Source: Eledone cirrhosa (lineage: Eukaryota). Taken from it: 64,000 bases of DNA. Numbering within the stretch: position 1 is the first letter of the stretch; the number at the start of each line of letters is the position of its first letter. Below the pieces are notes generated by a model. The model had not been told where the DNA came from and searched no databases. It saw only the letters and a program-made list of their open reading frames with translations. Where the stretch lies: NCBI GenBank assembly GCA_964016885.1, contig OZ024758.1, positions 28,024,001 to 28,088,000 of the forward strand, in the 5' to 3' direction. The translations under genes and the position numbers were made by a program. Shown here one piece after another: positions 11,795-14,501 of this stretch.

Positions 11795-12034
11795 TTACAT
11801 GATTTTTTGACGCCAAGGATAAATGCGTTTTAGATCCATTATGTGTACCCAAATGGTTGTGTAGCACATGACATAGAGAAGTAACAACAACATGAAGGTG
11901 AACATGATAGTCCGACTGCGACAAGCCTTTAAATTGCCAACCAAGCCACCATTGTGAGAATATTGTACTAGAACTCCTCCTAGCAAAGCAGCAACAATAA
12001 ACACTGCCACAAATGTCAAACCATCAGCCTCAAC
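11795..12034 (-). CDS. Putative terminal exon of the hexosaminidase, encoding two hydrophobic (TM-like) segments
   Basis: Polypyrimidine tract and tttcag acceptor, phase 0 matching the upstream GC donor. Translates VEADGLTFVAVFIVAALLGGVLVQYSHNGGLVGNLKACRSRTIMFTFMLLLLLYVMCYTTIWVHIMDLKRIYPWRQKIM*. Followed by unique AT-rich, 3'UTR-like sequence. Confidence 0.68.
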   Translation of the reverse strand, partial: VEADGLTFVAVFIVAALLGGVLVQYSHNGGLVGNLKACRSRTIMFTFMLLLLLYVMCYTTIWVHIMDLKRIYPWRQKIM

Positions 12035-12135
12035 CTGAAACACAAATACAAAAATAAATAAAGAGAAATGATTTATGCCATGTAGAAATTATCTTTTACA
12101 TTTAAATGTGACAAAGTCTTATTATCCACCTAGAA

Positions 12136-12302
12136 TGGTGGATTGGCAGTATCAGTAGAGGGTTGGATGCCATGCATTGCAGTCTGAGTTCAAATCCTGC
12201 CGAGGTTAACTTTGCCTTTCATCCTTACGGGGTTGATAAAATAAAGTACCAGTAATGTACTGGGTAATTGCTGGCCTTGTGCCAAAAGTAGAAACAATTA
12301 TT
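12136..12302 (+). mobile_element. SINE family 2 copy
   Basis: Same head, core and tail as 6868-7058, with an internal deletion. Confidence 0.85.
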
Positions 12303-12399
12303 CACCTAGAATTTCACATTCTTTTTTTGGTTTCTATCTTAAATAATCAGTAGTTTATAAGCTGAGTACTTTAAATATAGTAGGCCAGAAACTTTATTA

Positions 12400-13070
12400 A
12401 TATTTACAAATGGAAGGGAAAGGCAGGGGCTCTAGTATCACAGAAGAATGGGGAGGGGGAAAGGAGAGGGTGATGGGCTCTGGGCCTAGAACGTGGTGGT
12501 GTTGAGGCTGTGCCCCGTGGACAACACTGCAAAAGCATTTCTGTAGACAATGGCAGGTGACACCCACTACAACACCCACCCCACCGCGCAGGGCTCCTTC
12601 CTCAGAAGGGCTGACGTTCCAATCTTGCAGAGGAGCTCAGCAGTATGGGTTCCGAGGATGCCTGAGGCTTCCATGGTGACGAGTGCAAAGTGGAAGCAGC
12701 TGGACAATCCCCGGTATTTGTTTATCTTCCTTTCCTCTGCATTGTGGGCCGCAGTACCGGGGTTTGTGGCTGAAGCGACTAAATTGGAGACGGAGAACGT
12801 GTCACAACATGTGACATTCCAGATGAGGGATCTACCTCCTTCGAATGAGAAGAGGGTAATCCTATCGGGGGCATTTGCCGTCTCTGCGGTCGAGGTCTGC
12901 TGGTTCCACTTGTGATGGGAAGCCAGCTGCGTCCAGGCTCCTTCTCAATATGTGATTGAGAGCGGCATGTTGGGGGTACTGGCCTGAGCTCTGTAGGCAA
13001 GACAGTGGGTGCTGGATGCCCTTGTCAAGGACTGCCCCACAACAGCATTTATGTGGCTCACATATGTGGA
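12400..13070 (-). mobile_element. Decayed CRE-clade non-LTR retrotransposon 3' end (restriction-like endonuclease domain)
   Basis: Minus strand reads DRITLFSFEGGRSLIWNVTCCDTFS...AEERKINKYRGLSSCFHFALVTMEASGILG...AIVYRNAFAVLSTG, with a stop codon. A more decayed copy lies at about 38170-38580. Confidence 0.7.
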
Positions 13071-13172
13071 TGCCAGTTGTATAGCGATAAATAGGTGGCC
13101 AATTGACAGTCGTTAGAACATCAGATAAAATGTTCTGGCTCTCTGATCTCTGAGTTCAAATCCCGCCGAGGT

Positions 13173-13670
13173 CATCATCATCATCATCACCGTTTTACGT
13201 CCGTTCTTCCACGCTAGCATGGGTTAGACTGGTTGTCCTGTTGTGGGCAGTGTCTGGTCGGCTGACCATGCCTTGCTCATACAGAACTGATTTGGCTTGA
13301 TTTCTACAGCTGGATGCCCTTCCTAACACCAACCTCATTTACAGTGAGTGCTGGGTGCTTTTTCGTGGTGCCTACACGTCCACTTTACAGTGTGGGCTGG
13401 GTGCTTTTTTGCCGTGGCACCTCCACGACCACGTTGCGGTGGGGGGGTGTGGGGGTATATTGTTTATATGCTTCAGCTTGTACCCATGAGAGGTCGGGTA
13501 CTCTGTATTACTGCGTGACACCAGAGGTCACGGTCGTGTGTCATTGCCTTTGAGAGGTGTAATTGGGTAAGGTCGGCTTTTATCACCTCATCCCAGGTCA
13601 TCTTGGGTCTCCCCACTCCGCGGTTTCCATCGACTTCTAGTGCTCTGCACCTTTTTATGCAGCTGTCATC
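13173..13670 (-). mobile_element. 5'-truncated RTE subfamily A copy inserted inside a family 2 SINE
   Basis: Translates [23 protein letters not shown] followed by the 3'UTR and (GAT)n. SINE halves lie at about 13100-13172 and 13671-13735. Confidence 0.88.
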
Positions 13671-14017
13671 CAACTTTACCTTTCATCCATTCAAGGTTGA
13701 TAAAAAGAAAGTACCAGTCTAGTACTGGGATTGATTCTTCCTCTATATCTCTTTCTCACTGCCATTCTCTCACTCTCTATCCTGCTCTAGAAGAAATCTG
13801 TATTCAGTCCTGCAGAAGAGATGGGCTCCATCAGGTTAAAAAATGCCCTAGAAACACTGTATGTCAATATGGCGCCCCCCCAACTCCCTCAGGAGTTATG
13901 GGACCATACATACATGCATAGTGAACAGAGGTGAGAGGATTCTGGCCAGATATGGCCAGTTTAAATGCAAAAAGGTTAAGTGTTTAGATTATAAAGAAAA
14001 ATATTTTTTGAGGTAAT

Positions 14018-14351
14018 CATCATCATCATTTTACATCCGCTTTTCCCTGCTTACAAGGGTGGGATGGCAACTGATTCTGGCTTGATCTCTACAGCTGGAT
14101 GCCCTTCCTAACACCAACCTCATTTACAGTGAGTGCTGGGTGCTTTTTTGCCATGGCACCTCCACGACCACTTTGCAGTGGAATGATAGGGACTCCAATC
14201 CCTATCATCTCATTTCTACAGCTGAGTAAACTGGAGCAATGTGAAATAAAGTGTCTTGCTCAAGGAAACAACACATCACCCGGTCTGAGAATTGAACTCA
14301 CAACCTTTCGATTGCATGGCCAATGCTCTAACCACTAAGCTATGTGCCTCC
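14018..14351 (-). mobile_element. SINE family 1 copy
   Basis: Reverse complement of 8871-9211. Its 5' end lies about 30 bp downstream of the GC donor. Confidence 0.9.
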
Positions 14352-14383
14352 ATTATCCAATATCAATTGTAAAATATACTTGC

Positions 14384-14501
14384 CGGTTTAGAACAGCCTT
14401 CACATTCATGTTCCTGTACAATTGGCCGATCATATTCTCGCATGCGCCCATGACGAGGACAGTAGTCAGGTCCATTAATCTGACCAACACGCAGACCACG
14501 A
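14384..14501 (-). CDS. HEXB: Beta-hexosaminidase exon (end of GH20 fold plus linker), ending at a putative GC donor
   Basis: Acceptor tgatag. Translates (S)RGLRVGQINGPDYCPRHGRMREYDRPIVQEHECEGCSKP, where RG..G..C resembles the HEXA/B C-terminus. It ends at CCG|gcaagt; if unspliced it reads ASIFYN to a TGA at 14363-14365. Confidence 0.8.

Follow-up and report, generated by a model that had tools for sequence, protein, structure and literature searches.

To our knowledge, the animal hexosaminidases of the HEXA/HEXB type are soluble proteins. A locus of Eledone cirrhosa (contig OZ024758.1) raises the question whether an enzyme of this type may be held in the membrane by its C-terminus, as a sequence-only reading had claimed, and what such an enzyme would do there. 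The window, i.e. the whole stretch of 64,000 nucleotides analysed, is repeat-rich, octopus-like DNA, and its minus strand includes a GH20 beta-hexosaminidase gene, of which the 3' half is present (Table 1).

Gene structure and catalytic domain

Eight exons were located in the window by local tblastn with P0002 as query, an 804-aa protein of Octopus vulgaris and O. sinensis with the database name 'beta-hexosaminidase subunit beta'. With splicing at AG and GT/GC boundaries, their joint translation agrees with P0002 (residues 430-804) in 367 of 374 positions; the donor is GT in six of the seven exons that have one and GC (CCG/GCAAGT, slash at the exon end) in the remaining one. Within the window, tblastn gives no match to P0002 residues 1-429 (putative signal peptide, disordered pro-region and N-terminal domain), whose exons would sit past base 64000.

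Table 1. Features of the GH20 gene in the window (positions in the window; residue numbers of P0002)
Feature	Position	Strand	Basis
Last coding exon, 79 aa + TAA, whole predicted two-helix anchor	11795..12034	-	78/79 residues identical to P0002 726-804
C-terminal tail, short, 13 residues, predicted lumenal	11798..11836	-	sequence; topology inferred
Predicted helix 2, 21-24 residues, holding the best-conserved tail motif	11837..11908	-	AlphaFold helix 766-796 of P0002
Predicted cytosolic loop, 19 residues, basic, Cys immediately ahead of helix 2	11909..11965	-	charge and Cys counts
Predicted helix 1 of 18 residues, running from lumen to cytosol	11966..12019	-	hydropathy; AlphaFold helix 729-751 of P0002
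GC-AG intron, 2349 bp, phase 0, repeat fragments inside	12035..14383	-	
Exon with end of GH20 domain (last Cys) and linker, GC donor	14384..14501	-	
GH20 exon, P0002 652-685	18410..18514	-	tblastn match
GH20 exon, P0002 621-651, active-site W637 and E639	37168..37258	-	tblastn match
GH20 exon, P0002 564-621, active-site W573, Y597 and D599	38640..38811	-	tblastn match
GH20 exon, P0002 533-563	55585..55675	-	tblastn match
GH20 exon, P0002 500-533	57371..57472	-	tblastn match
GH20 exon, P0002 430-499, catalytic Asp492-Glu493	59155..59362	-	tblastn match

As judged from its sequence, the octopus protein is a GH20 beta-N-acetylhexosaminidase of the HEXA/HEXB branch. Pfam assigns to P0001 the GH20 catalytic domain (PF00728, E 2.9e-84) and the GH20b-type N-domain (PF14845, E 4.1e-18), and similarity is far higher to HEXB (E 1e-132, 447 bits) than to insect OfHex1 (E 8e-59, 203 bits). 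All 21 HEXB positions compared are matched or alignable, and the active site of the octopus protein retains R348, D492, E493, W554, W573, Y597, D599, W637 and E639; the letters at these HEXB positions agree with P0105. The catalytic Asp is present in 31 of 32 members of the tailed clade described below, and the catalytic Glu likewise in 31 of 32. The AlphaFold model (mean pLDDT 74) matches HEXB in Foldseek with a TM-score of 0.92 by target length (E 2.8e-53). Its residues 20-143 are disordered (pLDDT <50), and the N-terminus of P0002 carries a short hydrophobic stretch which, judged by eye, resembles a cleavable signal peptide. The octopus protein shares with vertebrate lysosomal HEXB and HEXA both Pfam domains, about 41% identity, the fold, the catalytic residues, four Cys and a beta-like Asp-Leu at 599-600. 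However, the vertebrate enzymes are soluble and end right past the last Cys, whereas the octopus protein additionally has the long disordered pro-region with a conserved extension ahead of the mature start and, past the catalytic domain, a linker followed by two predicted helices.

The letters KVRR ahead of the mature start were considered as a convertase site and dropped, as only R-x-P-like letters are kept outside molluscs, for which reason this region is taken as possibly structural. Tandem arrays with units of about 35 bp and about 68 bp lie within introns (window about 38900-40200 and 25650-26900), which also contain pieces resembling LINEs and long tracts of (TA)n and (CA)n. A stretch of 33 bases on the minus strand (60754-60722) encodes 11 residues identical to P0002 405-415; it is single-copy in the window, has a (CA)n run on one side and on the other the head of a repeat present 8 times in the window, and the remainder of its exon was not found there by tblastn. 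It may represent part of an exon that was duplicated and caught by an inserting repeat, or else an exon that has been disrupted.

Splicing and constraint of the last exon

The exon at 14501-14384 reads RGLRVGQINGPDYC, followed by a charged, Cys-containing linker up to the GC donor, which is the same continuation past the HEXA/HEXB end that the sequence-only reading had described. The donor dinucleotide lies at 14383-14382 and, if it is left unspliced, an in-frame TGA follows at 14365-14363. The acceptor is formed by a pyrimidine tract and CAG, and the exon starting at 12034, which ends with the TAA at 11797-11795, is indeed in phase and encodes the two hydrophobic stretches proposed for it.

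Contigs from four public runs, which are RNA by guess or of unknown kind, were aligned to 11200-14700. Record 1 of X1 matches window 11593-12034 with its letters 921-1357 and 14385-14504 with letters 1359-1478, while record 23 of X6 matches window 14503-14383 with letters 1449-1569 and 12033-11589 with letters 1570-2022. Both contigs, which belong to different organisms and different studies and are RNA by guess, are continuous over the proposed exon-exon junction, with the intron missing. Record 16 of X21 is identical to the window over 11528-12033 (0 differences); the match to the upstream exon probably belongs to the same record, as the depth figure is an identical 272.1 at 14415 and 14471. 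Pieces of X19 are continuous from each exon into the intron, which is the pattern of genomic DNA. The junction 14384/12034 is absent among the 15 joints listed in a table that is crowded by repeats and has 2233 further joints. The listed coding differences between the run contigs and the window in the last exon (14, at 10 positions) are without exception synonymous third-position changes, the list for those pieces lacking 1 of 19 differences for X1 and 2 of 23 for X6, and every listed indel falls in the 3' untranslated part. The spliced last exon is confirmed as real, and the conservation that had been looked for in it is found both in these differences and in the homologues described below.

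If unspliced, the minus-strand stretch 14383-14363 adds six residues and then a stop. The O. vulgaris model P0004 (727 aa) crosses the GC donor in this way and ends three residues on, so that a minor soluble isoform of the tailed hexosaminidase is possible.

Anatomy and predicted topology of the tail

In the AlphaFold model of P0002, the tail forms two long helices of moderate pLDDT (about 70-80), and the main mollusc group has Kyte-Doolittle values of 2.2-3.0 (19-residue windows) for both segments. The core of helix 1 has a median of 18 residues (range 14-24) in 30 of the 34 two-helix proteins, the median being taken by hand and the length rule being rough and without a control set. Helix 2 has a fully hydrophobic core of about 15 residues followed by a polar-aromatic run; in the main mollusc group its motif is strongly kept, with Cys and basic residues directly upstream, and a loop Cys occurs in 25 of 30 two-helix proteins. 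The loop carries on average 5.4 K/R and 0.2 D/E, vs 2.3/1.9 ahead of helix 1 and 2.8/1.6 past helix 2 (34 proteins), and its net charge is at least +2 in 34/34, counts which are inflated because the loop boundaries were placed at charged residues. The charge pattern fits a topology with lumenal enzyme, cytosolic loop and lumenal tail. Together with the splicing and the conservation of the exon, the two predicted helices and the positive-inside charge support the C-terminal tether that had been proposed, and a hairpin very probably anchors this hexosaminidase in the membrane, as far as sequence and structural model indicate.

With the last exon alone, Pfam gives no family above cut-off, and a search with it as query finds 1 protein among 68 candidates; the NCBIfam search yields no match above cut-off, and the Atlas contains no usable feature match for the tail, its structure matches all being below the bar. 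Among 71 candidates for shorter proteins with the tail there are 5 matches, of which four are apparent open frames starting in an intron and one is an apparent fragment, so no stand-alone tail protein is shown by them. The four bivalve-like open frames have an acceptor-like FQ immediately ahead of helix 1, which suggests that the bivalve anchor is also encoded by one terminal exon.

Distribution and phylogeny of the tailed enzymes

Homologues were collected with P0001 residues 560-832 as query, and the best 120 of 300 matches plus 10 further members of the octopus cluster gave 130 proteins. Past the catalytic domain, 47 of these have two or more hydrophobic windows, 7 have one and 72 have none, while 4 lack the anchor motif; the 47 (of 126 scorable) include 10 from the octopus cluster. 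Among the matches listed, the named two-window proteins are from bivalves, gastropods, octopus and the annelid Dimorphilus, and two C-terminal windows are absent from every named vertebrate protein. A further 140 proteins came from a profile search against 1.84 billion representatives, with two windows in 7, one in 11 and none in 122. Ten of these were looked up by name, and the two-window proteins include those of the nemertean Tubulanus, an annelid Ridgeia-cluster member, Heterobilharzia and Hymenolepis, the last labelled a ribosomal protein by its source; the Schistosoma mekongi homologue is a model without tail. The annelid tails have the IWM motif too, and non-mollusc tails are otherwise alike mostly by hydropathy.

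All trees were calculated from catalytic-domain columns only and omit P0171, which has two hydrophobic windows and an apparently broken gene model. In FastTree, the tailed proteins form one clade with support of 0.996 (91 rows) and 0.995 (111 rows). In IQ-TREE (492 columns, 58 rows), a 27-row tailed group lies on one side of a branch with support of 100/99; this group was picked after the FastTree result and includes P0144 and P0147, which have no detected tail, and six one-helix rows. The vertebrate enzymes are not part of this group, nor are the soluble paralogues of Capitella, Dreissena and Tubulanus. On these alignments, the tree separates the tailed branch (100/99) from the soluble mollusc, annelid and vertebrate enzymes and leaves the deeper branching aside; by its tail and its own branch, the tailed protein is identified as other than an orthologue of soluble lysosomal HEXA/HEXB. 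Glu stands in place of HEXB T496 in 26/32 clade members and in 0/20 soluble enzymes. The suggestion of a mollusc-specific paralogue is not supported, as the clade also includes proteins of annelids, a nemertean and flatworms, several of which have two hydrophobic segments at the C-terminus. The tailed hexosaminidase is by this span an old paralogue and, judged by the named members, a spiralian one.

Within the tailed clade, the bivalve paralogues P0053, P0055, P0060, P0066, P0131 and P0134 retain only a single helix and end in a short basic tail.

Comparison with other anchored hexosaminidases

Membrane-bound secretory-pathway GH20 enzymes are represented by insect fused lobes (FDL) and nematode HEX-2 (PMC4339880 and PMC6935376, both in part), which the tailed enzyme would resemble through its predicted tether. 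FDL and HEX-2 process N-glycans in the Golgi, and the same job is proposed for the tailed enzyme. However, the FDL anchor is an N-terminal signal anchor (PMC2492878, in part), and the membrane-bound animal enzymes described in the literature cited here are N-terminally anchored, whereas the extra anchor of the tailed enzyme is C-terminal. By sequence, the tailed protein is outside the insect Hex1/FDL branch with OfHex1 as the insect representative, FDL and HEX-2 not being included in the trees, and it would be an independent solution since it is far closer to HEXB than to OfHex1.

The plant hexosaminidases HEXO1-3 have N-terminal anchors and belong to a different clade. They are a further parallel to the role proposed here, as they reportedly act in different compartments to produce paucimannosidic glycans (PMC3060530). 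Among the matches listed, all 8 papers that mention a C-terminal transmembrane region in GH20 enzymes concern bacteria (e.g. Bifidobacterium); those are bacterial surface enzymes, the tails of which are unrelated.

In its accessible sections, a 2008 GH20 phylogeny attributes membrane-bound forms to N-terminal signals that escape cleavage, and the word mollusc is absent from it (PMC2492878). An expansion of GH20 is recorded in a survey of molluscan glycoside hydrolases, which in the portion available mentions no anchored form (PMC7560691), and a Trichobilharzia study describes the function of a fluke hexosaminidase as enigmatic (PMC4749378, in part). A C-terminal anchor is likewise undescribed in the accessible parts of PMC9300197, PMC4339880, PMC8059625, PMC8382897, PMC8194122 and PMC7619502, and in the open-access literature, supplements aside, no description of a C-terminally double-anchored animal hexosaminidase was found. 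The gene model itself is already in databases, as the exons match the annotated 804-aa Octopus protein, and such models are present in RefSeq and UniRef under generic names such as 'subunit beta' and 'uncharacterized', which conceal the distinct job suggested by the anchor.

Candidate role and alternatives

A two-helix C-terminal anchor kept over several phyla points to a distinct job. The reading we favour, with a probability of roughly 40%, is that the tailed enzyme trims terminal GlcNAc from N-glycans in the Golgi or late secretory pathway, a candidate role modelled on fused lobes. A putative signal peptide would bring the enzyme into the lumen, helix 1 would halt transfer, the basic loop would stay on the cytosolic side, where its Cys could be S-acylated, and helix 2 would bring the short tail back into the lumen. 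More tentatively, the short helix 1 and the basic membrane-proximal loop may then hold the enzyme in the Golgi, where it would cleave the GlcNAc installed by GnT-I and yield paucimannosidic N-glycans, like insect fused lobes, while the soluble paralogue of the same genomes would be the lysosomal enzyme.

Golgi trimming is favoured because a short helix 1 and membrane-proximal basic residues are features of Golgi enzymes, which have relatively short helices and more such residues than plasma-membrane proteins (PMC8421267, in part), because the predicted loop offers no conserved lysosomal motif and a soluble paralogue is free to serve the lysosome, and because mollusc N-glycans include paucimannosidic forms (PMC11065688, in part), which by definition require a Golgi hexosaminidase, insect fdl and nematode HEX-2 being the only ones named there (PMC6935376, in part). 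These sequence signs for Golgi residence are weak and without controls, and the positive-inside rule by itself would already give a basic loop. Moreover, the GOLPH3 rule is based on the short tails of type II proteins, not on loops. The active site also resembles broad-specificity lysosomal HEXB far more than insect OfHex1, whereas enzymes of the fused-lobes type have a narrow specificity (PMC4339880, in part), and a broad-specificity hexosaminidase in the Golgi would harm the complex glycans made by molluscs. More tentative still is the wider proposal of a spiralian-wide, Golgi-resident, hairpin-anchored subfamily as the maker of paucimannosidic N-glycans in molluscs, annelids and flatworms, which would be a further independent invention of GlcNAc trimming in the Golgi, derived from the lysosomal HEXA/HEXB line via one terminal exon.

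Rather unlikely is a cell-surface ecto-enzyme, maybe shed by a convertase at a basic site, that would trim chitin oligomers, mucus or egg-coat glycans. An RxxR or dibasic pair is present within 16 residues past the last catalytic Cys in 27/28 two-helix proteins (28 of the 34 scored, a count without control), plasma-membrane hexosaminidases are reported from the sperm of insects and ascidians (PMC2492878, in part), and shell-repair genes include hexosaminidase domains (PMC8194122 and PMC8382897, in part). However, the strict Rx[KR]R is found in the linker of just 6/28 proteins, the octopus having the minimal form only, helix 1 is short, the MolluscDB shell-matrix cluster has a bacterial-type chitobiase architecture unlike the tailed enzyme, and shell-less flatworms are in the clade. 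Shedding aside, the same basic linker site and the long disordered pro-region would suit a lysosomal precursor, the anchor of which delivers the enzyme without mannose-6-phosphate and which acts bound or after clipping, for which lysosomal acid phosphatase is a precedent; the nearest solved relatives, HEXB and HEXA, are lysosomal. This is unlikely nonetheless, as tyrosine and dileucine motifs are not conserved in the predicted cytosolic loop (YxxPhi in 1/30, acidic dileucine in 0/30) and the same species also have soluble HEXA/HEXB-like paralogues. Even if the enzyme were lysosomal or surface-bound, the two-helix tail would still be an unusual targeting device.

A different topology or compartment, with a single spanning helix and the other along the membrane or re-entrant, or with retention in the ER, is improbable: the one-helix paralogues of bivalves and the brief hydrophobic core of helix 2 favour the former and the dilysine-like C-terminus of the octopus protein the latter, but both segments are strongly hydrophobic and modelled as long helices, and such a dilysine-like end occurs in just 3/30 two-helix proteins. 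That the last exon is foreign to the gene and the enzyme soluble can hardly be credited; the GC donor is non-canonical and model P0004 goes through it, but contigs of two studies, RNA by guess, span the junction, and the tail is fused to the catalytic domain in 47 proteins.

If Golgi-resident, the tailed protein would give the GlcNAc-trimming step of snails, oysters and flukes a named candidate enzyme; the glycans of these animals mediate host-parasite recognition (PMC11065688 and PMC6935376, in part).

Other GH20 proteins with unusual termini or domain number

Four HEXA/HEXB-like proteins of bivalve and hemichordate origin (P0098, P0121, P0123 and P0161) belong to a second clade of their own (100/98) and end with a spacer of small residues and a hydrophobic stretch that resembles a GPI-anchor signal. 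The amphioxus HEXA/HEXB-like proteins P0107, P0109 and P0120 contain an N-terminal basic stretch and a hydrophobic segment, resembling a type II signal anchor. The liver-fluke models P0046 and P0050, which are not in the tailed clade, contain two tandem GH20 domains.
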